From positions 32,001 to 96,000 of the IMG/VR virus record IMGVR_UViG_3300025009_000054: a DNA stretch of 64,000 bases; one strand, written 5' to 3'. The notes under the pieces were generated by a model. The model ran no database searches. It was not told the origin of the DNA and was given only the letters and a program-made list of their open reading frames with translations. Shown in pieces: positions 8,026 to 26,582 of the stretch. Positions within the stretch are counted from its first letter, which is position 1. Each line of letters begins with the position of its first letter. The translations under genes and the position numbers were made by a program. The DNA is from a virus.

Positions 8026-8072
8026 ACAATTACCTCCGTAAGTTTCAAGGGATGCACACCGCGCCCTCTAAG

Positions 8073-8108
8073 AGTGTAGACGTACAGCAAGGAGCGAATG
8101 GGGCCAAT
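8073..8108 (-). promoter_or_regulatory. Candidate phage (ECF-sigma-type) promoter, copy 1
   Basis: Minus strand ATTGGC-N17-GTACGTCTACACT, intergenic, 48 nt upstream of the ATG at 8025. Confidence 0.6.
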
Positions 8109-8159
8109 TTCGGTTCATGTCTGTTACGGCCAGGTCGGACTTCCGTATGTTCTTGAGGA

Positions 8160-9514: not shown

Positions 9515-9578
9515 GATGGACTCCTTACAGTCACTTTAATGTTATTATCAACAAAGTGAACACGTTTTCGTTCCTATC

Positions 9579-9614
9579 AGTGTAGACGTACGGGGAGCAC
9601 TAGACGTCGTTAAT
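9579..9614 (-). promoter_or_regulatory. Candidate phage promoter, copy 2
   Basis: Minus strand ATTAAC-N17-GTACGTCTACACT, intergenic, right after a terminator. Confidence 0.55.
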
Positions 9615-9630
9615 TCTATTTCCGCTATCC

Positions 9631-9675
9631 AAATAATGATAATGGCTAAGTCCGATGTAGACTTAGCCATTATCA
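9631..9675 (-). terminator. Intrinsic terminator
   Basis: Perfect 16-bp stem TGATAATGGCTAAGTC/GACTTAGCCATTATCA with a 7-nt loop, followed by TTATTT on the minus strand, 25 nt after the 9700 stop. Confidence 0.7.
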
Positions 9676-9981: not shown

Positions 9982-12444
9982 TTACACCTTCGTTATCTCC
10001 ATAATAGGGAAATTGACAGCATACTCGCCATTTTTCTTCTTCATTTCATCGATACGCTTAGCCCAAGGCGAACTACGTGGTGCTACTCTATCAACTAGGA
10101 CGAGTGCAGTCTCTGTATCTGGGTTAATATTATCGACTATACCACGCAACTGGTATGTAGAACCAGTCTGCGGATCACGTCTATTAATAGCGACTTCATC
10201 ACCAATTTTGAATGGTATACTAGTCTCAGGTTTCGCATTAGGGTCGTACAGATACTGCAACGGTGCCATCTGGTTATTAACGATGTTATTACCCTTACCA
10301 ACAGCATCCTTAACGCGCTCAACTTTCCTCTTATACTCAGTAGAACCTGGCTCTAGTCCATCAGTCATTCCAAGTGCGTCCGCTACCATCTCTCTATTCC
10401 ATGGGTGTGTTGTGCTACTTGGAAAAGTATGATACATAAGCCACGCATCGCGATGATGTTCTGGCATGTTACTAATTGCATCAGATATTGGAGCTATCGT
10501 ATCTTCCCACTCCATCTGTTCCTGCATCTTGTGTGGTGATCTAATAGCATTTGGTCCATTTGCTTCAAATGAATCATTGCCATCATCACCTGGATCACCT
10601 TCGCTACTGTTTCCATGAGGCGCATCAAGTGATATCTGGTTATCTTCGCGTAACTTCTGTTTACGCAGGTAATCCTTTTTCTGATTATGGGCTATCATAA
10701 ATAGCCATGTCTTAAAACTAGAATTGCCCTTGAACGTATCAATCTTTGCGTATGCGTTAACAAACGTTGACTGAGCAACATCATGTGCCATTTCTTGATT
10801 GCAACCTTCACTCACCATTAGGCCGACCACATTATTATAATTCTTAGATATTAGCTCATCCCACGCACCCTGATTACCTTGGCGTGCTGCATCTACCAGT
10901 GCAAGTTCCTTAGGGTCAACGTTGCGGTAGGTCGGGCGTAGACCCTTCTTACCTTTCTTTGCCGTAAGCACGTACACTTCTTGTGCTATCGCATCAACAT
11001 CACCCTTACTAAGTTTAACACCACTAGACCTGATTTCATCGATGAATATACGGAATGCATCGTTAAAATCCTTAACTTCATTCTCATCATACTCTTCGTA
11101 TATTCGATCCTCCTCTGCTAGGAAGTCCTGTGCGAATTCTTCTACTTGGTCGATTGACAGAGTACGATTTACCAGGCTCTTATTTTTAGTACCCTGATCT
11201 TTAGGACGGGGTATACTTCTATCGAATGTATCGCGTTTCCTTATATCCCCATCATGCTGTCTCTGGAATAATTGCTGCAATATGGGATCTTCTTGTATAT
11301 CATCATCGTCTGATTCAACGCTCTCTGGTAGAAGTCTATCATCTTCACCAGTATATGAATCAGTTTGTATATCCGGAGTCTTGCTAGCATCAATATCATC
11401 GACTACAGGAGCTGTCTTACGACGCTTTACACGACGTCTAACGTCAGCTCTGCTCTCGTCACTATCTGTTTCTTTTGTTTTTGGTGTAGATGTTACGCCC
11501 TTTGGCTTCATATCCCAAGTCATAAGTCCAGCATATGACTCCAACTGGTCCATAGCATCCGAGTCACCAATAACATTCTCAAACCGACTTTTATCAGCAT
11601 TATATGATCGACGTGACAGATGAAATCCCATATCTTCTAGGAGCCCTATATTTTCACGTGTAGTCTGTACCCATCCAACATACTTATCGGCCTTGACTCT
11701 TTCGCCATCTTCTTGCGATACTATTGGCCGACCATAGTGGTCTATAGCTACCACTGACTTAGGTTTTTCATTAGGCGCTATATATCCACATTGTACTGTC
11801 GTGACGAATACACCGTAAAATTGGCCACCAGGTATACCAACTTTAGATTTTTGTTCATATTGGTGCATGATCTCTCCTTCATACACCGGTATCTGATCAC
11901 CATACTCATCGAGTTTAGGTTCACCTTTTTTATATTTAATATACTCTCTTCCGTCTTCATCGGTATCCATAACATTTTCATTATATCGCTCATACTTGGG
12001 CTGTTCGGATTCCTGCATTGTGGATGGTGCACTTCCCATCATCCTTGGTGCAGTAGCGGATGGGTCTAATGTGTGTCCAAGTCCTTGATAATACTTGCAC
12101 CTTACACCAGGAATTACTCCAGTTGTCTCATCCCACCGCTCTTCGTCCCATACTAGCACCGATGTTGGTGCCGCCGATATATCAGGTGCCCCACGACATA
12201 TCTTTACGAAATGTCTGTCACGAAGTAACGGGCATTTCACCATCCCAGGATATTGTATTATACGGTCGACGTATGGCTCAATATGATAGCCAGCATCATC
12301 AGCAATACGCTTGAGTTCCGCTACAGTAACTCCAAGAGTTTTAGCCATCTGTACATCATCTGATCTAAGTAGAGTTTTTGATGCACGTTTGGTAAGATAT
12401 GTTCCCATTTCTGGATATCTATGAAGCAATTCACACAATTCCAT
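9982..12444 (-). CDS. Large multi-domain protein with an ECF-type RNA polymerase sigma factor core
   Basis: Region 2: AWDELI...AHDVAQSTFVNAYAKIDTFKGNSSFKTWLFMIAHNQKKDYLRKQK. Region 4: AISNMPEHHRDAWLM...EMVADALGM. About 500-aa N-terminal extension and a KOW/SH3-like tail. Confidence 0.85.
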   Translation of the reverse strand: MELCELLHRYPEMGTYLTKRASKTLLRSDDVQMAKTLGVTVAELKRIADDAGYHIEPYVDRIIQYPGMVKCPLLRDRHFVKICRGAPDISAAPTSVLVWDEERWDETTGVIPGVRCKYYQGLGHTLDPSATAPRMMGSAPSTMQESEQPKYERYNENVMDTDEDGREYIKYKKGEPKLDEYGDQIPVYEGEIMHQYEQKSKVGIPGGQFYGVFVTTVQCGYIAPNEKPKSVVAIDHYGRPIVSQEDGERVKADKYVGWVQTTRENIGLLEDMGFHLSRRSYNADKSRFENVIGDSDAMDQLESYAGLMTWDMKPKGVTSTPKTKETDSDESRADVRRRVKRRKTAPVVDDIDASKTPDIQTDSYTGEDDRLLPESVESDDDDIQEDPILQQLFQRQHDGDIRKRDTFDRSIPRPKDQGTKNKSLVNRTLSIDQVEEFAQDFLAEEDRIYEEYDENEVKDFNDAFRIFIDEIRSSGVKLSKGDVDAIAQEVYVLTAKKGKKGLRPTYRNVDPKELALVDAARQGNQGAWDELISKNYNNVVGLMVSEGCNQEMAHDVAQSTFVNAYAKIDTFKGNSSFKTWLFMIAHNQKKDYLRKQKLREDNQISLDAPHGNSSEGDPGDDGNDSFEANGPNAIRSPHKMQEQMEWEDTIAPISDAISNMPEHHRDAWLMYHTFPSSTTHPWNREMVADALGMTDGLEPGSTEYKRKVERVKDAVGKGNNIVNNQMAPLQYLYDPNAKPETSIPFKIGDEVAINRRDPQTGSTYQLRGIVDNINPDTETALVLVDRVAPRSSPWAKRIDEMKKKNGEYAVNFPIMEITKV

Positions 12445-12481: not shown

Positions 12482-12925
12482 TTATTCGGATTCGTAGCCT
12501 TCTGGTTCTGCTGAAAATACTAGGTTGACGATTAATTCGCCACTGTCTCCGATCCTTGGTACAGTAACAGATGAGAATGTCCAGTTATCACCATAGATAC
12601 CCACGGACCCGCTGATGCTATCGTAAACTTCTGACCATTTGATATAGTCGTTGGCGTTAAGCTCTTCTATTACTACGTCTTGCACTTCCTTCGCATTTGA
12701 AGGATCGTTAATTCCAGGTATCCCACTAAAGGCTAGCGATATATCACCTGTGATATACATCTTTGAGGGCTGATGTTGGGATAGACCAGATTGCGCTTCA
12801 CCATAACATTCGAGTACTGTCATGATATTGGGCAACTGTTCAGTATCTAGTTCAAATTCTTCTGCATTACCCTCCTGAGCACTATGTAAACTCGCATGTG
12901 ATACCATGCTAGTTAGCCATTCCAT
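12482..12925 (-). CDS. Hypothetical acidic protein
   Basis: Start moved to MEWLTS behind GGAGG; the ORF-track 5' extension is the promoter. Confidence 0.6.
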   Translation of the reverse strand: MEWLTSMVSHASLHSAQEGNAEEFELDTEQLPNIMTVLECYGEAQSGLSQHQPSKMYITGDISLAFSGIPGINDPSNAKEVQDVVIEELNANDYIKWSEVYDSISGSVGIYGDNWTFSSVTVPRIGDSGELIVNLVFSAEPEGYESE

Positions 12926-12976: not shown

Positions 12977-13006
12977 ATTATACCACGAAAAGCCCATTCT
13001 TGTCAA
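12977..13006 (-). promoter_or_regulatory. Consensus sigma70/SigA promoter
   Basis: TTGACA-N18-TATAAT with extended -10 (TGnTATAAT); an inverted repeat CCCATTC/GAATGGG brackets the -35. Confidence 0.8.
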
Positions 13007-13062: not shown

Positions 13063-15963
13063 CTATACTTGACGTCTCGCAACTCGCTGCTCATATTCCA
13101 CTTCAGCCTCAGCCTGACTACGAGCAGCTATGTAGTCGTTCTCGTCAAATTGACCATCCTGTATATCGTATTTGCTGTAATTGAAGTCATCAATTAGGAT
13201 TTCCTCAGTACGGTCTACAATCTCCTGCGATGCAGTTCTCATAGCCGATGCAGAAAATGGCATTGGATCCTGACTAGGAATACCACTAGTTCCACCTACT
13301 GATGGTCCGCTAGTTTCCCATGGAAGATTTCCGGCACCAGGCTGCCTACCCATCTGCGTGTCGAAGTCATTAGTTTTCTGTTCTTTACTTTTAAGATCCT
13401 CAACACGTCTTTTCTTTTTATCTTCTACGATACTGAGAATCCTCGCGGCTTCATTTGTTGCGTGAGAAGCAAGCCTACTACTTACACCATTGGCAATATC
13501 ATAAGCCCTTACCCACCTATCATATGAGCTGCCACCCATTCTACGTGCCATTGACTCTAGCATAGCAATATATCGCTTGCCATCTTCACCAGCATTCTTA
13601 ATCGTAGTTATGGTAGAAGCTAGATCCTGTACTATATGATCATCACTTGAGCCACGATAATCTGCACCAAGATCATTATATGCTTTCATATAGGCACCCT
13701 CAAGATCGCCTATATATCTCAATTGTGCGGCTCTATCCTCAGCTAATGCCATCTGAGTATTTGCCGGTAATCCCCATCTAGAATCGTGATCACCCATGGG
13801 TTTACCAAGAGTAGTAATAGATTTTTGATGATCTCGACCAAATGGATCACTATCCTCAAGCCCAGCTTCATCTTTATTACTATTCATTTCGTTCATGATT
13901 TGATCGGCAGTTGGACCAGCTTCGTGTGGTCCAACTCCAACATCTTTAAGTGTCATCTTTAAAGCATCTTTAAGGCTATTAGATCTATTTCTATTTGCAA
14001 GCAGTTTATCCGTAAAACGAGTCTTACCACTAGACGACCCATCTACATTAATGGATGAACTTGTACTATGATTTACCGCATCACCAGTTGGTGTACTAAG
14101 TACATCCGACAATTCACCATCAGTCTGTGCGGTTCTCATTCCAGTATCGCCACTAACCTCATGCCAGCCATCACTGTCATATCTATTTTTTACTCTCTGA
14201 CACTCAGCGTCACCATAGCAATCAGTAAGCAATTTGCCAGTCTCGGCATCTATGAAATCAAACCACGCCTCTTCTCCATCATGACTATGATCACTCTTGA
14301 TCATATATCCATTACTTACGTCACCATCCATGTCGCGAGTGGCGTGGCCTTCCAATTGATCTTCATGCCTCTGATCAGCATGAATGTCATCGTATTTATT
14401 ATCGTCTTGTGCTGTACGTCTGCCAGGTGACGGGTCATCATTATCGTCACTATCATATATACCAGCGCACATATTCTGTGCAGCCTCTCTAGACAATCTC
14501 TTTTTATGCCCAGTCTTACCAACGCCACAGCTCATAAGGTGAGCAACATGCCCATCAAATCCGCCTTCAAATGAGCCATCTTCGTTCATATGTCTGCAAT
14601 AGTGCTTCTTCGCTTCTACCTTTACCAGTCTAGCGAATTTATCCATATTGCGGGCACCACTGAAAAATCCACTCTGTGGTATAGATATATGCCCATCCCC
14701 ACGGAATTCTTCATCACTACGTATACCTAACTGCGTATCGGTATCAAAGTCGCGATGCATAGCCGGACTATCGTACTGACTGCGTTCTCTATCCTCATGA
14801 TATCCACACGATACGCATTCCATCTTAGCCCAGTGTGGTCCACCACCAGGAATCTCTTCCATATCATTTCCACACTCTGGACAACTACCCATTTCAGAAG
14901 TATCAGCATGGTACTGACTAGTCTTAATTTTCTTAGATTTACCATCTACACCAGCAGTATCAATCTCTACTATATTGAAATCTTTTATGCTATCTTCATA
15001 TTTCTTATCAGTAGGATTACCAAGATGCTGATTATGAGGTTCGGACAGCTCTACTGGCATGGTAAACGGAAGTGCTTCTCTTCCTTTAGGTGCTGAGACA
15101 TCGAACCCAAGATTTGCAATCTCATCAATAACTTCTTCAACATCATCACTGGACATTGATGAATTCATCTTCATCATACCATTGAAAACAGTCTGTATGT
15201 CCTGTCTCGTTTTTTGAGCTACTCTGAGAACCTCTTCGGCCATTCTAGGTGCCGATAATGGTGCACCAGGGAATACTGGATTTCCCCAAGGTCCACCTTT
15301 AAACCCTGCAGCAGTCTTATTCATAGCTGTTAGCTGGTTATGTACTATACTTTCATCACCATTTGGTGAAATATCGGTGCGGTCTGACATCTTACGTGTA
15401 CCAGATTTAGCTATACCAAGATCAACAGCCATATCTTCAAGACTCGGCTTTTCAAGTTGATCTAGAGCGGATGCAACTACCTCATCAAACTGCTCCGGAT
15501 CCAAGTTTTCCTTGAAATAGGTCATAGCCTTATCACGGTGTGTCCTAAAGAACAGACCTATATCATCGATCAGCTCTGTTCTAGTAAGAGTGTCAGCATC
15601 TTTACCGGTATTAAACGTAGTTAGTGCTTTATTAGTGGTGTCTACCATGCTGTCATCATTAGGATCGTCTACTGCATATCGACCATTTGCATATGTCACT
15701 ACAACCGGCATCTTAGATTGGCCTGTCGGGTTAACATATACAACGTCAAACTGTAGTTTTGCTACCCTAACGTTGCCAACACCACACGCATTGATGTCTA
15801 CGTTGAGCATATCCATGCCAGTAAACGAAGCCTGAGCCCCATCCAGTTTCAGAGACTTACAGTATTCACTTACCTTCTTATATGCACATTCGACTAGTCG
15901 GTGACGCTCATCACTACCAATCGATCTATCACTATTCGTATTGAGCGCGGCTTGTATACGCAT
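13063..15963 (-). CDS. Large acidic multi-module protein with RTAQ/RTAS motifs (putative virion internal polyprotein)
   Basis: 966 aa; NKTAA, RRTAQ, MRTAQ, MRTASQ; Zn-ribbon CPEC...CVSC. Confidence 0.7.
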   Translation of the reverse strand: MRIQAALNTNSDRSIGSDERHRLVECAYKKVSEYCKSLKLDGAQASFTGMDMLNVDINACGVGNVRVAKLQFDVVYVNPTGQSKMPVVVTYANGRYAVDDPNDDSMVDTTNKALTTFNTGKDADTLTRTELIDDIGLFFRTHRDKAMTYFKENLDPEQFDEVVASALDQLEKPSLEDMAVDLGIAKSGTRKMSDRTDISPNGDESIVHNQLTAMNKTAAGFKGGPWGNPVFPGAPLSAPRMAEEVLRVAQKTRQDIQTVFNGMMKMNSSMSSDDVEEVIDEIANLGFDVSAPKGREALPFTMPVELSEPHNQHLGNPTDKKYEDSIKDFNIVEIDTAGVDGKSKKIKTSQYHADTSEMGSCPECGNDMEEIPGGGPHWAKMECVSCGYHEDRERSQYDSPAMHRDFDTDTQLGIRSDEEFRGDGHISIPQSGFFSGARNMDKFARLVKVEAKKHYCRHMNEDGSFEGGFDGHVAHLMSCGVGKTGHKKRLSREAAQNMCAGIYDSDDNDDPSPGRRTAQDDNKYDDIHADQRHEDQLEGHATRDMDGDVSNGYMIKSDHSHDGEEAWFDFIDAETGKLLTDCYGDAECQRVKNRYDSDGWHEVSGDTGMRTAQTDGELSDVLSTPTGDAVNHSTSSSINVDGSSSGKTRFTDKLLANRNRSNSLKDALKMTLKDVGVGPHEAGPTADQIMNEMNSNKDEAGLEDSDPFGRDHQKSITTLGKPMGDHDSRWGLPANTQMALAEDRAAQLRYIGDLEGAYMKAYNDLGADYRGSSDDHIVQDLASTITTIKNAGEDGKRYIAMLESMARRMGGSSYDRWVRAYDIANGVSSRLASHATNEAARILSIVEDKKKRRVEDLKSKEQKTNDFDTQMGRQPGAGNLPWETSGPSVGGTSGIPSQDPMPFSASAMRTASQEIVDRTEEILIDDFNYSKYDIQDGQFDENDYIAARSQAEAEVEYEQRVARRQV

Positions 15964-16030
15964 TTGTACTCAACCTCCATCCCAACGCGTGTTGGGTATC
16001 ATACTTACACTACCATTAGTATAGTAGAGC

Positions 16031-17140
16031 CTACGACCAGGAATCCACTATCGTAGCACCACCGGACATTGCATTAGCCATGTCCTGTTCCTCGGTATCA
16101 TATACTCTAACAGACGATGGCATCGATTTACGCCCATCATTATATGCAGCCTTGATTGCCATAGAATCTCCATCTTCTACATATGGAAGCCTATCGTAAT
16201 ACTCAGGCGTCTCATCTAGATGAGCAAGAGCTATTTTAGCCGTCTCGATATCATCGTCGTCTGTGATGTTATTTTTACCAGCCTTAGTCCCATGCTCCAG
16301 CTCCACGTTTAGCCCATCGCAGAAGTCTTCTACCGTGAACGGGTTTGTATCCCAATTTATGCCAAGCTTCTCACCGATCTTCTTGGCTTCATCAATAGAG
16401 AATTTAGAGCGATGTTCCTTTTGTGCCGATACAGTCTTACATCTTGGGCATTTCTTACCTGTAAACTTCATACCACACTGTTTACATCTTACTTCTTGCA
16501 CTTCTTCTTCATATGGACCATGAATGCCCTTGTCGTACCGTTCTCCGTTAACCCTAACTTCTCCACCAGGCCATATTGAGACAGCCTTTTCACCATAAGC
16601 ATTCATGAGATATCCGGTAACATCGTTGATCCTTTGATCTTCAGCATGCTCCGCTGCTTCTTCACGCTGCTTCTTCATCTTCATCATGTACCCAAGCCAG
16701 CGTTTATGCTTCTCCTGCTTCTCCTGGTCTGATAGTCCAGCTACTGCGGCCATGCCACTCCGCTCGTGTATGTCCTCTACAATCTCGTCCATTTCAGACT
16801 GTGGGATTTTAGAACGTACACCATGTGGTATGTCATGCTCATGTTTAACCGAAATAACATCGTCACGGTCAACATTCTCGTCAAATAGGTCAATAGCAGT
16901 ATGTATGGGATGCTCAACGTAGTTTGGCATGGATTCACCAGTTGGGTAAACGAACGTGTAGCCACTCCTACCCTTCTTAGTGACCACTACATTATCGTCA
17001 CCCATGACATATATACGAGTATCTCTATCTGGAAGATCGTACCTCTCGCGTACTACAATACCAGGTTCATTATCTGGTCCAAGTTCTGTTGCCCTCATTT
17101 GAGCTATTCTACCTGGACCAGTAAATCGAATACTATCCAT
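16031..17140 (-). CDS. Multi-module protein with Zn-ribbon and DUF5661-like domain
   Basis: CKQC..CPRC; AKKIGEKLGINW...GLNVELEHG...TAKIALAHLDETPEYYDRL. Confidence 0.7.
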   Translation of the reverse strand: MDSIRFTGPGRIAQMRATELGPDNEPGIVVRERYDLPDRDTRIYVMGDDNVVVTKKGRSGYTFVYPTGESMPNYVEHPIHTAIDLFDENVDRDDVISVKHEHDIPHGVRSKIPQSEMDEIVEDIHERSGMAAVAGLSDQEKQEKHKRWLGYMMKMKKQREEAAEHAEDQRINDVTGYLMNAYGEKAVSIWPGGEVRVNGERYDKGIHGPYEEEVQEVRCKQCGMKFTGKKCPRCKTVSAQKEHRSKFSIDEAKKIGEKLGINWDTNPFTVEDFCDGLNVELEHGTKAGKNNITDDDDIETAKIALAHLDETPEYYDRLPYVEDGDSMAIKAAYNDGRKSMPSSVRVYDTEEQDMANAMSGGATIVDSWS

Positions 17141-17158
17141 TACTAACTCCAGTCAGCT

Positions 17159-18286
17159 CTATACGCTAGCCCATTCCTCATTAGACGAATAATACGCCTT
17201 AGCTCCATTGCATTCCCAATATGGAACATATCCTCCGCGATCTGCACCCTCTGGGTGGGCGTCAACATATCCAGTTCCAGGGCAGTCAATGGGCTTTTCA
17301 TCTATGCCCAGTATTTGAACCTTACCTTTATTTACATCTGGGAACGCAGACTTCTGATTCAGCTCTTCAGCTAACTCTTCATTAGTCATAGAATCACCGC
17401 CAGAACCTGACATATCGTACTGTGCAGTTCTTGGTTCAGAGTTATCAGAGTAGCCACCCTGCTGTAGGGCATTATCGAATTCTTTTCTATCCCAGGTATG
17501 CTGTTCATTATCTTCTGTGGGCCCACCTACACCATGAATAGCTAGCACTATCGCATTATAGGCATCGCCATCTTGAGATCCAGGCTCAACATCACTGATA
17601 AGACCATTAGGACCGGAGACTTCTATGCTGCCCCACTCTGAATCTGACTCATATGAGACTCCATTGATTAGCCACTCTTGGTGGAAGTTACCATCATTTT
17701 CATCAGTCGATACGAGCCGAATATTGATGGTACCACCCTGCTCTTGTGCGGTTCTTGGTTTACCACTGTTAAGTTCATCCTGATCTGCGGGAGCGGTAGT
17801 CATATCTTGATACTTCACTACATATTTTGGTTTTCCGGTAGTGGGATCAATTGTAGAGCTGTCGATAGTACCGGATTTACCATTATAATTCACCTGCTGG
17901 CCATTACTATAGGTCTGCTGTGCCGTTTTCGACATAGCAACCTTGGCCCCACCAAACGATAGTGGCTTTAGACCTTTCGCTTGCAAGTAGCCACGTACCA
18001 TGTCATCATCGTCATCTTGCGCTCTAACAAGCATTTCGCCATCAACCATCCATATAGCTCCAGTTGACGGATGCTGATATACGCCCTTACCGTGATCTAC
18101 TAGCTGCGCGGTTACAGACCTACTAAACGGCACACTATCCCTGCCCTCTAGAACTACAGAAGTAGGGTCAATTTTATTACTAGCCGTCCTCATGCTGGCT
18201 GTCCGGTTCTCAGCGATAGCATCGGATTCTAAGTCTGTAAGAAAACTTGGCAGTTCATCGTACTGCCGCGCTATTTTTCTAAACAT
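17159..18286 (-). CDS. Acidic multi-module protein with repeated R/K-T-A-Q/S motifs
   Basis: RTASMRTAS, VTAQ, KTAQ, PRTAQ twice; SH3/KOW-like module between KTAQ and RTAQ; GGAGGTG RBS. Confidence 0.7.
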   Translation of the reverse strand: MFRKIARQYDELPSFLTDLESDAIAENRTASMRTASNKIDPTSVVLEGRDSVPFSRSVTAQLVDHGKGVYQHPSTGAIWMVDGEMLVRAQDDDDDMVRGYLQAKGLKPLSFGGAKVAMSKTAQQTYSNGQQVNYNGKSGTIDSSTIDPTTGKPKYVVKYQDMTTAPADQDELNSGKPRTAQEQGGTINIRLVSTDENDGNFHQEWLINGVSYESDSEWGSIEVSGPNGLISDVEPGSQDGDAYNAIVLAIHGVGGPTEDNEQHTWDRKEFDNALQQGGYSDNSEPRTAQYDMSGSGGDSMTNEELAEELNQKSAFPDVNKGKVQILGIDEKPIDCPGTGYVDAHPEGADRGGYVPYWECNGAKAYYSSNEEWASV

Positions 18287-18352
18287 GTGACACCTCCAAA
18301 GTGTTTGCTAATCAATATAGTAGGGTATGAGATATTTACGGTGATGTTCAAA

Positions 18353-18388
18353 AGTGTAGACGCACAACGAGAGCTAGGTGGTGCCAAT
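18353..18388 (-). promoter_or_regulatory. Candidate phage promoter, copy 3
   Basis: Minus strand ATTGGC-N17-GTGCGTCTACACT, between the TerL stop and the ATG at 18286. Confidence 0.6.
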
Positions 18389-18393
18389 AATAA

Positions 18394-20127
18394 CTACCTG
18401 TAACGACTTCTATTCATGGGCGCACCGCCACCTCCACCAGATAATCCTCTACCCATCGCAGGGGTTCTCGCCCTCTGTCCTCCACCGCCACGGATAACAC
18501 GCTTAATATGCATGAGTTTATCTGCTATATAGCATACCATGGCATCAGCACATGGGTGATCGTCGTGTTCACCATTTGGCGCACAAATCTTCTTATTAGG
18601 AGAGTTTAGCATGGTGTGTTTTTCTAGGTTTTCCCATTGTCTAACCGAATTCTGAAATGGCTTATGGCCACTACCACCATCATACCCATCAATAGCTGAC
18701 CTATCTGGATATTTAAATAGCCCACGGTCAACTTCCATAAGTATGTGGTCAAATATGGCATTTTTCCAGTTTTTGCCAGATTCTGGGTCTGTCCTACTGT
18801 ACATAATACCATATACGCCAATACCCTTCAAACTCTGCCTAGCAAAATCGAGTACAGGCTGTCCGCATCCGGTCATATCAATGATTAACGCTTTACATGG
18901 GAATCTTCCATCTTTTGATATCAGCGACCTAACCCACTCAAGCTGTACGGTGTAGTCAGTGCCGTACCTCTCATCGCTATGCACTTTAGTCTTTAGATCT
19001 TCCACTTTCCTAACAATACTGAGTGCAGACCAGTCATTTTTACCAGTACCATCAGAATCGGTTGATGAACCTCCAGCAGGATCCCATGATGCATAGTATT
19101 CGCCACCATCCCATGATGTGCTACCATGTATTATCGGACCACCACCAAGCATGCCCTCTACCTGCTCTTCACTAAAGAAGAGGTCTGCATCTACAAGCCA
19201 TTCAAGCATATACTGTGTTCGGAAGTCATCTGGTATCATATCTCCAGGTAGATCGTGTATCCTCATTGTACGTCCATCGACTATAACAATCGGGTTATGA
19301 GGATATGTCTCCTGCTTGATAGCTATCGGCATTCGATCAAGTACATATCTAGATGTCTGTGTTCCATCTACATCGATAGTACCAGATCTATTGAGGATCC
19401 CGCACATTTCCCATGGGAATATACACTTCGTATATGTCGGGTCTTTGAACGAGTGATGAAAGTGGTTACGTAGTCTTGGTGTGCCGGACTTTATAATTCT
19501 TGCTCCCCAAGCACCTCCCATTGGGAGGATTACTTCGGAGACGACCTTATCGCTTACTTTCTGCGACTCGTCAATCATTATCAATCCAGCACTAAAACCT
19601 TCGATATTTGCCATTTCACTAGCTGACGCCTGTGAAATCTGAATACCTGGTTCACGTGACCATTTAGTACCCTTATCCTTAAAGACGATTGTACCCTTGG
19701 TAGACGATTTCCAATCAACTATATCATCAAAGTATGGCCTATACCTAGCACGTTCATGTATACGGTTAAGTACTAATGCAGCTTGACCTTCTCTAGGACC
19801 AAATATGAGTATATTACCGTGTTCCTTCTTCGTGTACCTATCGCCAAGAATAAGGGATCCCTGCGCCAGAGAGTCGGTCTTTCCTGTCTGTCTTGTCATA
19901 AGTAGACAGACCTTAGCCAGAGCTCTATTTGCAATGGCGTTTACTGCGGCAATCTGGTTCTCATAGACAACGATGCCCATGTTCTTCTCAACATAGTACC
20001 TATTATCTAATTCAGCCGCAAAGATATTGCCGATATCAGTAGCTGTTATTCCATTATACGCTGGTTGCTGCGACAATTTCTTCACCTTTAGTCTTATAGA
20101 TATACTTCTCGGCGAGTTCATGTCCAA
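18394..20127 (-). CDS. terL: Terminase large subunit
   Basis: Walker A MTRQTGKT, Walker B IMIDESQ, coupling motif SGTP, nuclease SWDPAG...IIDMTG..GQPV...HDDHPCAD. The start may be the TTG near 20076. Confidence 0.9.
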   Translation of the reverse strand: MDMNSPRSISIRLKVKKLSQQPAYNGITATDIGNIFAAELDNRYYVEKNMGIVVYENQIAAVNAIANRALAKVCLLMTRQTGKTDSLAQGSLILGDRYTKKEHGNILIFGPREGQAALVLNRIHERARYRPYFDDIVDWKSSTKGTIVFKDKGTKWSREPGIQISQASASEMANIEGFSAGLIMIDESQKVSDKVVSEVILPMGGAWGARIIKSGTPRLRNHFHHSFKDPTYTKCIFPWEMCGILNRSGTIDVDGTQTSRYVLDRMPIAIKQETYPHNPIVIVDGRTMRIHDLPGDMIPDDFRTQYMLEWLVDADLFFSEEQVEGMLGGGPIIHGSTSWDGGEYYASWDPAGGSSTDSDGTGKNDWSALSIVRKVEDLKTKVHSDERYGTDYTVQLEWVRSLISKDGRFPCKALIIDMTGCGQPVLDFARQSLKGIGVYGIMYSRTDPESGKNWKNAIFDHILMEVDRGLFKYPDRSAIDGYDGGSGHKPFQNSVRQWENLEKHTMLNSPNKKICAPNGEHDDHPCADAMVCYIADKLMHIKRVIRGGGGQRARTPAMGRGLSGGGGGAPMNRSRYR

Positions 20128-20434
20128 TAATACGTTCTGGCTTTACTCCAAGCTTTGCGGCACGTTCAATACCCTGCCCGACGCCTTCTTCCATTTCACC
20201 ATCTGAGAGTGGTCCTTCAGCTAGTGCCTCTGATACGACGTGTGCTTCCTTATTGGCACGATCATCATTACAATAAAATCCTGGTCCAATAAATCTTGTA
20301 GCTACACGACGTGATAGCTGTTTTTCTGTTTTAGTACCACAGGCACATTCCGGTCCATTATTCATTTCAGAAACAGATCTAAATACTTCCTGAGTATCTC
20401 CGCATTTTGTACACTTATATTCATAGAGTGGCAT
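20054..20434 (-). CDS. FmdB-family zinc-ribbon protein
   Basis: MPLYEYKCTKCG...CACG...FIGPGFY signature. Confidence 0.8.
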   Translation of the reverse strand: MPLYEYKCTKCGDTQEVFRSVSEMNNGPECACGTKTEKQLSRRVATRFIGPGFYCNDDRANKEAHVVSEALAEGPLSDGEMEEGVGQGIERAAKLGVKPERIIGHELAEKYIYKTKGEEIVAATSV

Positions 20435-22041
20435 TATCCACACCTCCTAAGGTTTCTTGCTTTTACTATAAATCTACGTGCGGCACCACGCCATTCCCTA
20501 GATGGATCATCATGGAAGTTGCGTGTAGTCTGATGGTTTATATCTTTATCCCACTGTCCGGTGTATTTACCATCAGATAGATCTAATAATTCTTCATTAA
20601 CATTAAATAGATCTGTGTTGGCGAAATTATCTCCATTTGGTGTGTACTCGATGATGGATCCGCCGTTATGGTGGACATGCACACCATAGCTTACTGCAGC
20701 GGCAAGTTGCCCATCATCTTTTGCATTTGTAATCATGTAGTACAGCGTGCTTATTCCAATGGCCGCATCATCGCTAACTGAGTTACCATCTTTACTCCTA
20801 CCTGGTAGCATCGCCGCTGAGTTCATTAAATTTGATATTATCATCATTCCAATAGAGTTGTTTAACAGCGATATCTCCGTAAACAACTCTGACATATACC
20901 ATATATCATCGATGTCACTTTTATATTCCTCAGGTATACGATTTATCGCCCTGTACACGACATCAGGATATTCTTTCTTCAATTGGTCGACGAATCCATG
21001 TACGACGCTCAATTTCCCATTTTGTCTAAGGGCAAATGATATCGATGATATATGGCCTACTGCCCATTCCATACATGCGTTTTCAAATTCATACGCCATA
21101 CGGCTAGTTACGTCCTTGAATTCCGACTGCAACTTATCATAGTCAGCCATAGCATTACCGCCGAACGACAACTTATATTCAAGCTCGTACCACCTTTTGA
21201 TGAGGTCTACATCTATTGAGATGCCATCGGCTTGTGCTGTTCTCATACTAATAGATTCACCTTGACTATCAACCAATATATCCCTAATCGTAGTACCTGT
21301 AGTAATCACAACTCCTGGATTAATATAATATGTCTTACTATTATCACTGTTACTAAACTTCCATATTGACTCAGCCTCATCACTACCGAAATATAATGCA
21401 CTCTCCCCTAATGATGCCTCCAATGCTATTGCTAGATCATCACCACGACCTGGATTATCACTAAAGTCTGGTCTGCCAGGGCATATATATCCAGCCATTA
21501 TATCGTACAGTGTTATAGCGCTATCCCTTGGCTCATCTAGAAAATCATATCCAATATTATGAAACCACTCCTGTATATCATCAAGGTTCGATCTTATCCA
21601 TTGATTAAACGGATCACTCTGTGCTGTTCTCATAGCTGTGGTATTAAACTGGCCAGGCACAGGTATTACTGGCTCTACTACAGGTTGATAATTTGGATTG
21701 TCACCACCGATGGATTCTTCCCACGTTTTCGGCTTATTCTTACCAAAGTATACTGCCGCAGCTAGCGCATGGCTACAGAACCTGTTGCGCAAGTGGAATC
21801 TCTGCATAATCTTGCACCACTGGCCCCACAAACAGTCACAGCTCCACCAGTTTACAGCCTCTGGGTTTGATCTACCACCAGGATATGCGAGTACTATATT
21901 GTATGTACCATGATGGCCATCAACTGTACCCTCAAATCGCTCTGGTGTCATCACACTTGGATGAACAGCACCACTATGGTATAGCTTAAATGCCTTACGC
22001 TTTACATCAGACCACGCGGCCTTACGTTCCATCTCATTCAT
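20434..22041 (-). CDS. SWIM Zn-finger multi-module protein with two MRTAQ motifs
   Basis: WSCDC...FCSHALA (CxC-xn-CxH) at the N-terminus; MRTAQSD and MRTAQAD split it into three modules. Confidence 0.7.
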   Translation of the reverse strand: MNEMERKAAWSDVKRKAFKLYHSGAVHPSVMTPERFEGTVDGHHGTYNIVLAYPGGRSNPEAVNWWSCDCLWGQWCKIMQRFHLRNRFCSHALAAAVYFGKNKPKTWEESIGGDNPNYQPVVEPVIPVPGQFNTTAMRTAQSDPFNQWIRSNLDDIQEWFHNIGYDFLDEPRDSAITLYDIMAGYICPGRPDFSDNPGRGDDLAIALEASLGESALYFGSDEAESIWKFSNSDNSKTYYINPGVVITTGTTIRDILVDSQGESISMRTAQADGISIDVDLIKRWYELEYKLSFGGNAMADYDKLQSEFKDVTSRMAYEFENACMEWAVGHISSISFALRQNGKLSVVHGFVDQLKKEYPDVVYRAINRIPEEYKSDIDDIWYMSELFTEISLLNNSIGMMIISNLMNSAAMLPGRSKDGNSVSDDAAIGISTLYYMITNAKDDGQLAAAVSYGVHVHHNGGSIIEYTPNGDNFANTDLFNVNEELLDLSDGKYTGQWDKDINHQTTRNFHDDPSREWRGAARRFIVKARNLRRCG

Positions 22042-22060
22042 ATTATACTCCTATGTGGTA

Positions 22061-23044
22061 CTATCCTTTATTTCTAGTTTGCAACGTATTACGTTCTGGT
22101 ATCTTATAGTAATCGATACCCATATCATCATTATATGCAGACTCAAGTTGTGGCCTATCGATAACATATATCTGGCTATTATCGAACACTATATATGATT
22201 TCCCACCCTCATATTCGTTATCATAGATAATTCCATCATAACCCTTAGACTTAAGGACGCTCACAAAATCTTGTGGAGTTTTTATCGTACCATCAGTAAA
22301 CTCCTCAGATACTCGACTATCACTACCGAACGCATTTTTGAGATTCTGTACCTCGTCCCAATATAAGGGATCACGATTAGTGTACATAGGGTTATTTATA
22401 CGCAAATACGCACGAAATACGTATGGGTCGGTATCACTCTCGTATCTATCATATGACGACTCTACGGCACCAGTCATATTATCGAAAGTACCCTTATCTC
22501 CAAAGTGGAAACCAATATCACCGTGTTCAAAGGTAGTAAAATCCTTATCAGTTATGTGATACACCACCATCGGCTTTCCATTACCATCAACTACCTTTGA
22601 TCCATTAAACCACGCCTCTACATCTGTATCTGTAGTTTGTGATGCTCTCTGTCCTGGAAATCTATTGGTTACAGGTGATCCCACGGTGCTCGGCATGTAA
22701 CCACGTGTAGCATCATTGATTTCCATCCCGCCCATTACAGGACTAACATTAAATAACATTAATAGGTCTGGATTGTCCTTCGATTCTTCTACGATATTTC
22801 CAATAGCTGTTACTCGATCAGGATATGTGTCCGCATTATACAAATCTATAAATAGCGGCTTATACTTGTCTGCGGCCATAGCTGACTGCTCACTACTGTA
22901 GATGATATCGGCGTATCCTATGAGCTGATTATAGAGATCATCAACTAGTTTTGGGTCGAACCATCCTTGTGAATCATTTCTATATAATTCACCAAGCTCA
23001 ATGACGTTAATTTGTTGTGCCGAAGACTTCATTTGTTCCTCCAT
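22061..23044 (-). CDS. Protein with C-terminal ADP-ribosyltransferase-like (ART-PolyVal-type) domain
   Basis: WFNGSKVVDGNGKPMVVYH.T..DFTTF...GFHFG...AYLRINNP...GYDGIIY.N..EG..SYIVFDNSQI. Confidence 0.7.
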   Translation of the reverse strand: MEEQMKSSAQQINVIELGELYRNDSQGWFDPKLVDDLYNQLIGYADIIYSSEQSAMAADKYKPLFIDLYNADTYPDRVTAIGNIVEESKDNPDLLMLFNVSPVMGGMEINDATRGYMPSTVGSPVTNRFPGQRASQTTDTDVEAWFNGSKVVDGNGKPMVVYHITDKDFTTFEHGDIGFHFGDKGTFDNMTGAVESSYDRYESDTDPYVFRAYLRINNPMYTNRDPLYWDEVQNLKNAFGSDSRVSEEFTDGTIKTPQDFVSVLKSKGYDGIIYDNEYEGGKSYIVFDNSQIYVIDRPQLESAYNDDMGIDYYKIPERNTLQTRNKG

Positions 23045-24441
23045 TGCTGAATCCTACTCTCTATATACGCCTTAATCTTCTCGTATGTTGCACGATACAC
23101 TTGATGACCCTTCATATAGGTATTGTAGAATGGGTCACTCTCGTCTTCTTTAGGGCGCACTAGACCCATCTTTTCCATATCCTCAATCTCACCTTCCCAA
23201 GCGATATCGGCAGCGAGTTGTGCGTACTTATATGGGTCTTTAAGCACTCTCTTCGTTGCAGGTGAGTTATCGGTTAGCGCATTTCCAATGAGGTCAAATA
23301 CGTGCCTATCTTCTAGTCTTACAGCAACATCCCCAGGCGTACAATACGCAAAATCTCTACCTTGGGCTGTCATGATATATATCTGGCGTTCGGCATCCCA
23401 TGTTGCTGTATATGGATTCTCGAAATCACCTGGCTCGTACCAATCGTCGTTATCATCACCACCGTATCCACGATCTATATCTATCGGAGTACGCGGTGGT
23501 GCAGTCGTTATCCTTGATTGTGCCTCTCTCCATCCAAATATTTTTGACACATGAGAAAGCATTTCATTGGACATGCCATGCTTCCTTCTCTCTTCCTTCA
23601 ATGTAGATAGTACATGTATATACCCATATCTTTCAAGGATTTTGTATACAATATTGGCTGGTAGCCAATTTCTAGACATCTTAAATATCTCATCATCTGA
23701 TGCGTCCATTGGCATGTTGAAAGCGGATATTCTTTCTTGATGAATCTGTTCATATTGCTTAACCATGCGACGTATATCAGCATCAACCTCGGCCATAGCA
23801 CCAATAAGCCTAAACGTAAACCACTTATCGAGCTGACCATCAGCCTCTGATGCATATTCCCTAAGTAGTCTTAGATCGGTTAAGTCTCTACTAAGTTTGC
23901 CACCTTCAATATCAAACATTCGTGCGTAGTGGATGGCTTTCATCCATATAAAGTCCATTATGCCACGTGGGCTCCATGATATATCAAGATGCGGAGGCAT
24001 CTTTAGCCATACATTACCGTCAATACTGTATATGGCATCGGATTCAAGCTTATTATCAGTCCTCATATAATAATTAATGGGGTGATGTGTTCCTGGTATT
24101 ACTTCACCGTTAATGCCACGAATAATATGAAGTAATGTGGTCCACGCATCCTTCTCATCAGCATCAACCCCATTAGCCATTTCAAACTTATCCCTATCAA
24201 TAATTACAGTGACATCAATATCGCTGTCATTTGTCCACTGTTCAGTTGCTGAGCTACCGATAAGATATAGTAATGTCCACTGATTCGGGTCATTGAAGTA
24301 TCCGGATAAAGCATCGAATATGCGTAGAGTCACCATGCCCTTTATATCATCACGTAGTACTGGCACATCATCAGATGTGTTCCATATATCCGGCGACAGC
24401 TTATTGTGTGGAAGGTCGATAATCGACGCTTTTCTATCCAT
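23029..24441 (-). CDS. Pol-beta-superfamily nucleotidyltransferase with C-terminal extension
   Basis: LIGSSATEQWTNDSDIDV (GS-x10-DxD); AIYSIDGNVWLK; NIVYKIL. Confidence 0.75.
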   Translation of the reverse strand: MDRKASIIDLPHNKLSPDIWNTSDDVPVLRDDIKGMVTLRIFDALSGYFNDPNQWTLLYLIGSSATEQWTNDSDIDVTVIIDRDKFEMANGVDADEKDAWTTLLHIIRGINGEVIPGTHHPINYYMRTDNKLESDAIYSIDGNVWLKMPPHLDISWSPRGIMDFIWMKAIHYARMFDIEGGKLSRDLTDLRLLREYASEADGQLDKWFTFRLIGAMAEVDADIRRMVKQYEQIHQERISAFNMPMDASDDEIFKMSRNWLPANIVYKILERYGYIHVLSTLKEERRKHGMSNEMLSHVSKIFGWREAQSRITTAPPRTPIDIDRGYGGDDNDDWYEPGDFENPYTATWDAERQIYIMTAQGRDFAYCTPGDVAVRLEDRHVFDLIGNALTDNSPATKRVLKDPYKYAQLAADIAWEGEIEDMEKMGLVRPKEDESDPFYNTYMKGHQVYRATYEKIKAYIESRIQQWRNK

Positions 24442-25814: not shown

Positions 25815-26582
25815 TTATAGAACCATGTCGCCAAATACTAATCTCAGATCTTTTTTAATAGTACTAATGCGGTTGACAACACGTGTCTCACTAATACCAA
25901 ACATTGCGCTTATGGTCTTGTAGTTTTGTTCGGGGAGGAAGAAGTAAGCGTGGAATATATCGTAATCAAATTTTGTATAATTATTGAGTATGTGATCTAG
26001 CATTGTATCGACAAGTGACTTCGCATCTAACCTAGCGATTATAGCATCGGTATTGTCATCCACACATGGGCTTAAAGCATCTAAAACTGACGGATCCCCT
26101 ACCAGAACATTTCTATTCTGGTCGCGCATTAGTCGTTCTATTTTATCGAGAGCCCTAATGGACAACATCCTCTTTACAAATACATTATAATATGCAGGAC
26201 CACCAATAGTATAGTCATGTAATGTAAGCTTAGTAAATTCACTACGCGACCACACATATAACTCTTCCCACGATATTAAATTTGCATGACCTATGTAGTA
26301 TTTCTTAGTAACGCTAACAATAAGGGCTTCAAATTGTCTGAGTAGCCACTCCATAGACTCATTATCGCCATCCTGTGACAATGCTACGCGTCTATTTATT
26401 TCCGCTATTAGTGCTTTTTTACCACCGGTGCCGCCCTGTACATGACTAGGCGGCACCACTTCAATGCTATGCTCAGGCGATCTACACATATCGCATAGAC
26501 CCACATCATTATCTGAATCGATTAGATATCTAATTCCACATTCGGCACATGTGCCAAATATACCATCAGGTCCCATCACCAT
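25815..26582 (-). CDS. Sigma-70 family sigma factor with N-terminal Zn-ribbon
   Basis: SQDGDNESMEWLLRQFEALI (region 2 start); C-terminal HTH YKTISAMFGISETRVVNRISTIKKDL; CAEC...CDMC. Confidence 0.7.
   Translation of the reverse strand: MVMGPDGIFGTCAECGIRYLIDSDNDVGLCDMCRSPEHSIEVVPPSHVQGGTGGKKALIAEINRRVALSQDGDNESMEWLLRQFEALIVSVTKKYYIGHANLISWEELYVWSRSEFTKLTLHDYTIGGPAYYNVFVKRMLSIRALDKIERLMRDQNRNVLVGDPSVLDALSPCVDDNTDAIIARLDAKSLVDTMLDHILNNYTKFDYDIFHAYFFLPEQNYKTISAMFGISETRVVNRISTIKKDLRLVFGDMVL

Follow-up and report, generated by a model that had tools for sequence, protein, structure and literature searches.

An 820-residue phage sigma factor of the extracytoplasmic function type, its predicted host-type promoter and the near-identical promoters it probably reads

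The DNA analysed here (the window, 64,000 nucleotides) makes up bases 32001-96000 of the 142,704-bp IMG/VR record IMGVR_UViG_3300025009_000054, which stems from an uncultured phage of groundwater. On its minus strand, at 9982-12444 (positions are those of the window, unless the genome is named), it encodes P0001, a protein of 820 residues in which a sigma factor core of the extracytoplasmic function (ECF) type is set between a very long N-terminal region and a short C-terminal one. The gene is the middle one of three, being preceded by that of a 147-residue acidic protein and followed by that of an 88-residue membrane protein, and the group is framed by a predicted promoter of host type and by an intrinsic terminator. 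Across the genome, 22 copies of a promoter-like element of another kind (TTGGCACC-N17-CGTCTACACT; private promoters in the following) are found, without exception on the coding strand and ahead of a gene. The reading developed below, which we regard as probable, is that P0001 is an immediate-early master sigma factor, produced from the host-type promoter and endowed with an extension that is without precedent.

The sigma operon and its reading frame

The operon is opened by a predicted host sigma-A promoter (12977-13006, minus strand) made up of TTGACA, an 18-nt spacer and TGgTATAAT, which agrees with the consensus at 12 of 12 positions and includes an extended -10 element. The site lies on the coding strand between the genes of a 966-residue protein and of the 147-residue protein, with its -10 hexamer ending 52 nt before the start codon of the latter. 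It is the sole 12/12 match in the 142.7-kb genome and the only intergenic site with at most one mismatch, intergenic DNA accounting for approximately 8.5% of the genome. Judging from these features, the operon should be readable by the host sigma-A holoenzyme from naked incoming DNA.

The first gene (12482-12925, minus strand) belongs to the public gene call, is provided with a GGAGG ribosome-binding site and encodes P0003, an orphan protein of 147 residues and 16 kDa with an isoelectric point (pI) of 4.05, an acidity that is DNA-mimic-like. The gene of P0001 starts 37 nt further on and is followed by that of P0004 (9700-9966, minus strand), a basic protein of 88 residues and 10 kDa with two hydrophobic segments, the strong ribosome-binding site of which overlaps the stop codon of the sigma gene. 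An intrinsic terminator with a 17-bp stem, a 5-nt loop and a T-rich tail (9637-9675, minus strand) closes the operon 25 nt after the third gene. Scans of P0003 and P0004 against Pfam, PHROGs and NCBIfam returned no family match. Adjacent to the sigma gene, no anti-sigma factor with an anti-sigma domain was found, neither operon neighbour matching any family, and P0004 has only about 17 cytoplasmic N-terminal residues, too few for a canonical anti-sigma domain. Many ECF groups are without an adjacent anti-sigma factor, so that its absence is compatible with membership.

The open reading frame (ORF) of P0001 comprises 820 codons within an enclosing open frame of 845 codons, and its product is a soluble protein of 93 kDa and pI 5.1. 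Seven contigs, drawn from ENA and Logan assemblies of two groundwater samples (which may themselves be the source samples), encode the identical protein, and across the Logan contigs, from two DNA runs, the stretch shows neither variants nor indels nor joints. A mis-assembled fusion, the concern raised in a preliminary description of the stretch that was made from its letters alone, is unlikely because the same P0001 recurs in separate assemblies without variant or joint, and the ORF can be taken as real. The ENA contigs, of 142.70-142.84 kb, break at different places in different assemblies and, therefore, the map of the phage is probably circular and the genome essentially complete, despite a CheckV estimate of 82%.

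Domains of P0001

Sigma region 2 (sigma-2) occupies residues 511-605 (10630-10914, minus strand) and is assigned to core binding and -10 recognition by homology. The Pfam family Sigma70_r2 (PF04542) is matched at residues 531-597 with an E-value of 7.8e-13 and 48.5 bits against a cut-off of 24 (53.3 bits in the scan of the genome, where this was the only Sigma70_r2 found). The model TIGR02937 (sigma70-ECF) extends over residues 527-694 with 56.2 bits against a cut-off of 42.9, PHROG 1740 ('RNA polymerase sigma factor') also matches, and the best sequence matches in the PDB, to residues 513-608, are AlgU and sigmaE. The residues of sigma-2 for melting and specificity (F-K-G-N-S-S-F-K-T-W ... 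N) are retained; the specificity loop, FKGNSSFKTW, and the Asn following it align with residues of AlgU, and the loop resembles that of sigmaE/AlgU. The ECF region 2 proposed in the preliminary description is, thus, confirmed by family model, profile and structure database alike.

Region 4 (sigma-4), which the same description had called clear, is another matter. It is placed at residues 638-720 (10285-10533, minus strand), beyond an acidic, unstructured linker of 32 residues and pI 4.05 that includes no sigma-3 domain (residues 606-637; 10534-10629, minus strand), and it has insertions before and inside the helix-turn-helix. The Pfam region-4 models PF08281 and PF04545 do not match P0001 even at an E-value of 10, and residues 630-730 alone found no sigma factor among PDB sequences. 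By contrast, a profile of ECF proteins (80 genes collected from bacterial genomes, 59 used) aligns residues 512-670 with 93.8 bits and so takes in the 'LPexxR' helix at the start of sigma-4, and an hhalign comparison of residues 600-740 with the ECF alignment spans sigma-4 in full, though weakly (P 0.023) and with two insertions. In an AlphaFold2 (AF2) model of residues 500-820 guided by that alignment, the mean predicted local distance difference test (pLDDT) score is 77, with sigma-2 at 95-98, and Foldseek ranks whole ECF sigma factors (sigmaE, AlgU and SigW) at the top. In the Foldseek overlay, sigma-2 superposes on sigmaE region 2 with -10 DNA (4lup_C) with a template modelling (TM) score of 0.87, a root-mean-square deviation (rmsd) of 1.4 A and 36% identity, while VIA-align gives a Z-score of 13.8 for sigma-2 (against SigW) and one of 6.6, over 69 residues, for sigma-4 against sigmaE region 4 on -35 DNA (2h27_D). 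Because the model leans on the alignment, the presence of a very divergent sigma-4 is graded no higher than probable, and the earlier claim is confirmed in part. The sigma core alone fits the ECF layout, with a 32-residue linker and without sigma-3, and the whole adds 500 N-terminal residues and a C-terminal barrel of 80 residues. Taken together, these results support the view that P0001 is an ECF-type sigma factor of a phage, extended at the N-terminus by an extraordinary, unrecognised region and at the C-terminus by a small beta-barrel.

The extension can be divided into four parts, all read from the minus strand. Residues 1-64 (12253-12444) are, with low confidence, a helical segment resembling a helix-turn-helix (helices at residues 2-64 in single-sequence AF2, pLDDT approximately 57-67); residues 65-320 (11485-12252) form an orphan region of globular-like composition, with no Pfam match and a pLDDT below 40; residues 321-430 (11155-11484) are a charged, probably disordered linker with a basic patch, RRRVKRRKTAP, followed by an acidic stretch; and residues 431-510 (10915-11154), directly N-terminal of sigma-2, are an acidic segment of pI 4.5 for which AF2 hints at helix at residues 431-497. 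The acidic linker material noted in the preliminary description is, therefore, found both at residues 606-637 (see above) and at residues 361-400, where the net charge is -12. That residues 431-510 might be a half-duplicate of sigma-2 was considered and rejected (nothing by BLASTP; hhalign P 0.07).

The N-terminal 500 or so residues, described from the outset as unrecognised, indeed have no relative in family, sequence or Atlas searches. A word-indexed search of 5.8 billion proteins with the whole of P0001, with its N-terminal 500 residues and with its sigma part returned only P0001 itself and one ECF sigma factor of 182 residues. In an exhaustive HMMER search of 1.84 billion representative proteins no relative of residues 1-500 was found, and the single match for the N-terminus, to a surface protein with MBG and SLH domains, was discarded as a spurious sum of repeat matches. 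Scans of the isolated N-terminal pieces against Pfam, PHROGs and NCBIfam were blank, as were those of the isolated C-terminal barrel; the ESM Atlas holds no feature neighbours for P0001, its own model having a predicted TM score of 0.21; and megablast and tblastn against cultured phages gave distant sigma-2 matches only. Single-sequence AF2 of the whole protein was unusable (pLDDT 37), and the N-terminal 500 residues did not fold.

At the other end of the protein, residues 738-820 (9985-10233, minus strand) are modelled as a small beta-barrel plus helix with a KOW/Tudor/SH3-like fold (pLDDT 67-83), which reaches Z-scores of 6.2-6.9 against the KOW domains of Spt5 and NusG and several Tudor domains. 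The KOW/SH3-like module anticipated for the C-terminus holds, thus, at the level of the fold, and not at that of a Pfam family.

In the reading favoured here, the N-terminal 500 residues and the KOW/Tudor-like tail would be accessory to the sigma core. The acidic linker and the helical segment might act like region 1.1 of primary sigma factors, keeping the free sigma off DNA, and the N-terminal globular part or the barrel might add contacts with RNA polymerase or promoter DNA, or displace the host sigma factor as gp79 of phage phiEco32 does; both are put forward as weak guesses. Ranked by plausibility, an accessory contact with polymerase, DNA or host sigma, possibly joined by self-inhibition of the region 1.1 type, comes before a pro-sigma gated by a signal or a protease, and the latter before capsid targeting.

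The self-regulated or pro-sigma factor favoured in the preliminary description would be a variant of the master sigma reading, in which the N-terminal 500 residues hold the sigma inactive until a signal arrives or a cut is made, after the manner of BldN, of pro-sigmaE/K or of the C-terminal sensor domains of ECF41/42, and is possible but on balance unlikely. N-terminal extensions of ECF sigma factors that are removable (BldN) or inhibit DNA contact (SigC of M. tuberculosis) are documented (PMC7826278), and P0001 has a strongly acidic disordered stretch before sigma-2 and lacks a canonical anti-sigma gene, its 88-residue neighbour being too short; the known extensions are, however, short. Neither a protease site nor a partner protease nor an internal start before sigma-2 was found, and keeping P0001 inactive would bring little benefit to a lytic phage that needs it for nearly all its promoters. 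Separate translation of a short form is also unlikely, because none of the in-frame starts ahead of the sigma core has a good ribosome-binding site.

The private promoters and their reader

The private promoters follow the consensus aaaTTGGCACCAttt-N13-CGTCTACACTcTTGGAGGtGGA, also written aTTGGCACCa-N17-CGTCTACACT, in which 17 nt separate GGCACC from CGTC. Their -10 motif, CGTCTACACT, is present in 21 exact copies and in a single variant, CGTCTGCACT, all of them on the coding strand. A position weight matrix derived from the 22 sites scores them at 40-65, whereas nothing in the rest of the genome scores 14-40 and shuffled sequence does not exceed 2. Within the 13-66 nt after each site come a ribosome-binding site and the start codon of an ORF that encodes no fewer than 43 residues. 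Of the 22 sites, 16 fall in the small-gene block downstream of the operon, two stand just after the operon, one serves the cargo genes and three are found among structural and replication genes. The site at 9567-9616 (minus strand), just after the operon terminator, has a degenerate -35 element and precedes a gene of 141 codons; that at 8061-8110 (minus strand), of the form TTGGCCCC-N17-CGTCTACACT, precedes one of 169 codons; and that at 18341-18390 (minus strand), after the terminase gene, heads the cargo genes, which encode proteins of 375, 369 and 966 residues. A scan between the cargo promoter (18362) and the sigma operon found no strong terminator. A second conserved class of intergenic motif was also sought, and none was convincing.

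Directly after the -10 element the private promoters have a conserved cTTGGAGGtGGA. In four sites, where the next ORF starts 13-16 nt behind it, the motif itself apparently acts as the ribosome-binding site; in the others a second ribosome-binding site intervenes, and the start codon is 29-66 nt from the motif. The motif may be a Shine-Dalgarno-like stabiliser at the 5' terminus of the mRNA, or part of the target of the sigma factor. The idea that the private element is a hairpin was rejected, the complementarity between the segments that follow the -35 and -10 elements being 3.95 as compared with 3.82 in shuffled pairings, a value reached by 140 of 500 shuffles.

The geometry of the sites (GGCACC-N17-CGTCTA) and their -10 element are ECF-like, while the -35 element has CAC where ECF promoters have AAC. 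SigmaE reads GGAACTT and GTC, accommodating T-10 and C-9 in pockets, and a swap of the specificity loop changes specificity (PMC6648896); the private -10 element, CGTCTA, contains this GTC core read by region 2 of the sigmaE type. P0001, with the sole sigma-2 of the genome and a sigmaE-like loop, is the obvious candidate for the reader of the CGTCTACACT promoters, as the preliminary description had implied, and sequence evidence argues strongly for this assignment.

On these grounds a simple sequence of events can be proposed. The host sigma-A holoenzyme would read the promoter at 13006-12977 and transcribe the 3.3-kb operon of three genes up to the strong terminator. The sigma-2 and sigma-4 core of P0001 (residues 511-720) would then, by homology with its relatives, bind the core RNA polymerase of the host, and the new holoenzyme would read the 22 private promoters. 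Finally, read-through from the cargo promoter may add late positive feedback on the sigma gene; such read-through, and hence feedback or even packaging, is conceivable because no strong terminator lies between that promoter and the operon.

Several observations weigh against this scheme. No enrichment of AAC..CGTC, which would link this type of sigma-2 to CGTC, was seen ahead of the bacterial ECF genes that are nearest (58 of them), and the divergence of region 4 leaves the reading of the -35 element by P0001 unproven. A look-up of RNA runs returned none that contains this phage. Pfam might miss a phage RNA polymerase that has diverged strongly, and the search for a polymerase of the T7 type was without a working control. 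A 12/12 sigma-A site arises somewhere in the genome in 13% of mononucleotide shuffles and, therefore, the weight of the operon promoter comes from its coding-strand orientation, its intergenic position, the TG and its distance to the start codon. Finally, if the DNA carries 2-aminoadenine, the host sigma-A may read TATAAT poorly.

A first alternative is that the private promoters are read by a host ECF sigma factor exploited by the phage or by an unrecognised phage RNA polymerase, P0001 having other targets or a narrower regulon. The consensus is unusually long, with conservation from about -40 to +12 that is more typical of single-subunit or dedicated polymerases, its GGCACC departs from the usual GGAAC of ECF -35 elements, and the genome encodes large orphan proteins without assigned function (803, 1273, 1423 and 966 residues). 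On the other hand, the 17-nt spacing and the GTC-containing -10 element are classic ECF geometry, P0001 is the only sigma factor in the genome, and a search of the genome for the domains of multisubunit RNA polymerase (PF00623 and PF00562) gave no match. DxDGD motifs occur at about the level of chance, and the copy in the 966-residue protein lies between two predicted protease sites. Overall, such a reader is improbable. The more specific proposal that this 966-residue neighbour of the sigma operon is a YonO-like RNA polymerase, based on its DMDGD motif, was rejected: nothing in PDB, Pfam or Atlas spoke for it, and the motif is flanked by predicted cleavage sites.

Beside the private promoters, sites with a perfect TATAAT and a weaker -35 element were collected, giving six intergenic sigma-A-like sites, that of the sigma operon included, where rough arithmetic leads one to expect about one. 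The five others, all on the minus strand and with two mismatches in the -35 element, are at genome positions 134770, 103523, 99639, 95369 (window 63369) and 77574 (window 45574), all in the replication and structural parts, where private promoters are few. The host holoenzyme may, thus, read more than the sigma operon.

The proposal of virion delivery, and comparison with known systems

The preliminary description had further suggested that P0001 is packaged in the virion, processed and injected to start transcription, pointing to KRAS (residues 20-23) and RKTA (residues 342-345) as resembling a motif of neighbouring proteins. Both are present, and neither fits the strict form of the motif, [RK]TA[QS], which occurs 12 times in the proteome as compared with 1.85 expected, with Q or S, never P, at the fourth position. 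All copies are confined to the 966-, 375- and 535-residue proteins around the terminase and to a protein of 1162 residues that contains a protease (13063-24441), and P0001 has none. ART-PolyVal and nucleotidyltransferase genes lie beside the [RK]TA[QS] proteins.

In its full form, this alternative would have P0001 enter the capsid, undergo cleavage by the head protease and reach the cell with the injected DNA, there to start transcription at the private promoters, possibly because a base-modified genome is unreadable for sigma-A. The gene of P0001 does come directly after those of three [RK]TA[QS]-punctuated proteins and near that of the terminase, the ART-PolyVal and nucleotidyltransferase genes nearby are of the 'polyvalent, injected' type, read-through from the cargo promoter could provide late synthesis of the sigma, RKTAP is placed in an exposed basic linker, and a PurA/PurZ-like gene is present in the genome. 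Against this, besides the lack of the motif, no capsid-targeting feature was identified in P0001, and no precedent for a virion-delivered sigma factor was found in the literature searched. Since the operon is equipped with a consensus host promoter and a terminator of its own, host RNA polymerase can make P0001 from incoming DNA, so that delivery is not needed. The suggestion of packaging and injection is, thus, left unsupported, and we consider it very unlikely.

The PurA/PurZ-like gene encodes a homologue of adenylosuccinate synthetase (genome 98094-99296; PF00709 in two stretches, E approximately 1e-24) and, as far as homology goes, is consistent with a 2-aminoadenine pathway. A combination of the two schemes, with P0001 both made early and loaded into the capsid for injection as a ready reader for a genome that may have 2-aminoadenine in place of adenine and be hard for sigma-A to open, is most improbable. 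If it were true, P0001 would be the first virion-delivered sigma factor, and an ECF-type -10 element, being read via flipped T and C and not via A, would suit such a genome; a genome so substituted would in any case offer a direct test of promoter reading on such DNA.

Finally, that the sigma module has decayed, leaving P0001 as a decoy or inhibitor of core RNA polymerase or as a scaffold with sigma-2 as a mere polymerase-binding handle, would agree with the absence of a Pfam match for region 4, with the insertions in its helix-turn-helix and with the predominance of non-sigma sequence in the protein, but it is made highly implausible by the conserved melting and specificity-loop residues of sigma-2, by the retention of the sigma-4 fold with its LPxxxR helix and by a coherent class of private promoters of ECF geometry that needs a reader.

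For P0001 as a master sigma factor, the closest working analogy appears to be gp36 of phage phiEco32 (and of phage 7-11), likewise a phage-encoded, divergent two-domain sigma factor, which uses host core polymerase and private promoters as P0001 would. In phiEco32 the sigma-70 holoenzyme reads the early genes and the gp36 holoenzyme the middle and late genes, while gp79, a separate protein, displaces host sigma-4 and stabilises gp36 (PMC12276001). The gp79-dependent open complex is among the weak Foldseek matches of the P0001 model (rank 49). Where phiEco32 places the shut-off and stabilising function in a separate protein, P0001 has its 500 N-terminal residues and its C-terminal barrel in cis, and the promoters differ, with AATGTA at -11.5 in phiEco32 as compared with GGCACC-N17-CGTCTACACT here.

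SigmaE of E. coli and AlgU of P. aeruginosa are the best match for sigma-2 of P0001 (approximately 36% identity, rmsd 1.4 A, similar specificity loop), and their promoters have in common with the private ones the GTC core of the -10 element and a spacer of about 17 nt. They are, however, proteins of approximately 190 residues, controlled by the membrane anti-sigma factors RseA and MucA and directed to a -35 element GGAACTT, whereas P0001 has a divergent sigma-4, a -35 element GGCACC, no anti-sigma partner and two large extra modules. With regard to the order of events, gp28 of Bacillus phage SPO1 is a sigma factor whose early gene is transcribed by the host sigma-A holoenzyme and which then directs core polymerase to the phage promoters of the following class. 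It is a protein of about 26 kDa without extensions, and the late genes of SPO1 use a second sigma pair, gp33/34, whereas one sigma factor here seems to serve all private promoters.

Among bacterial ECF sigma factors, extensions at the N-terminus are less frequent than those at the C-terminus, and shorter, the well-studied BldN being a cleaved pro-sigma, and phage ECF factors were omitted from the ECF classification as divergent (PMC7826278). In BldN (ECF121), as in pro-sigmaE and pro-sigmaK of Bacillus, an extension precedes the sigma core and gates activity, as that of P0001 could, but these pro-sequences are of tens of residues and have dedicated proteases, whereas the 500 residues of P0001 include globular parts and neither a protease nor a site was identified. 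ECF41 and ECF42 share with P0001 the combination of an ECF core and a large soluble domain in one polypeptide, without a separate anti-sigma factor (PMC7826278, PMC8999054); their extensions, in contrast, are C-terminal, bacterial and of recognisable fold (SnoaL-like, TPR), that of P0001 being N-terminal, without relatives and from a phage of lytic type. As to the internal proteins of T4 that are targeted to the capsid, and Alt, the likeness is in genome position only, since the gene of P0001 adjoins those of proteins with a recurrent putative head-protease motif; unlike in the T4-type model of injected cargo, P0001 lacks the motif and has its own host-type promoter.

In a viral structure library, phage ECF-like sigma factors of 160-230 residues are common, with a few proteins of 500-685 residues among the weaker matches. 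That phages redirect the RNA polymerase of the host by sigma factors of their own is textbook knowledge, but these factors are small. A 500-residue orphan N-terminal extension together with a KOW/Tudor-like tail on a phage sigma factor is a novel elaboration of this familiar type: of the 93 kDa, only a quarter is sigma core, and among billions of sequences there is no relative of the remainder. Should the 500 additional residues provide host shut-off, polymerase tethering or self-inhibition in cis, a new design of takeover factor would be at hand. The wiring is legible, with one consensus host promoter leading to one sigma factor and this to 22 near-identical private promoters, and would amount to a compact, orthogonal switch.

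As for the rest of the genome, scans of IMG/VR with the sigma factor and with the terminase as queries found no relatives; the phage is a single uncultured lineage without known relatives, which limits the generality of the finding. The nearest match of its terminase is the one of Bacillus phage G (32% identity), and its DNA polymerase is DnaE-like. In the long intergenic gaps of the small-gene block, dense repeats of the tatatacc/ccatata type (genome 24,900-25,100 and 13,650-13,800) could be an origin or an operator array. Two proteins, of 384 residues (genome 100305-101459, minus strand) and of 255 residues (window 25815-26582, minus strand), end in a sub-threshold helix-turn-helix of GerE/sigma-4 type and are possible second-tier regulators, the gene of the former coming immediately after the variant private promoter (genome position 101515).

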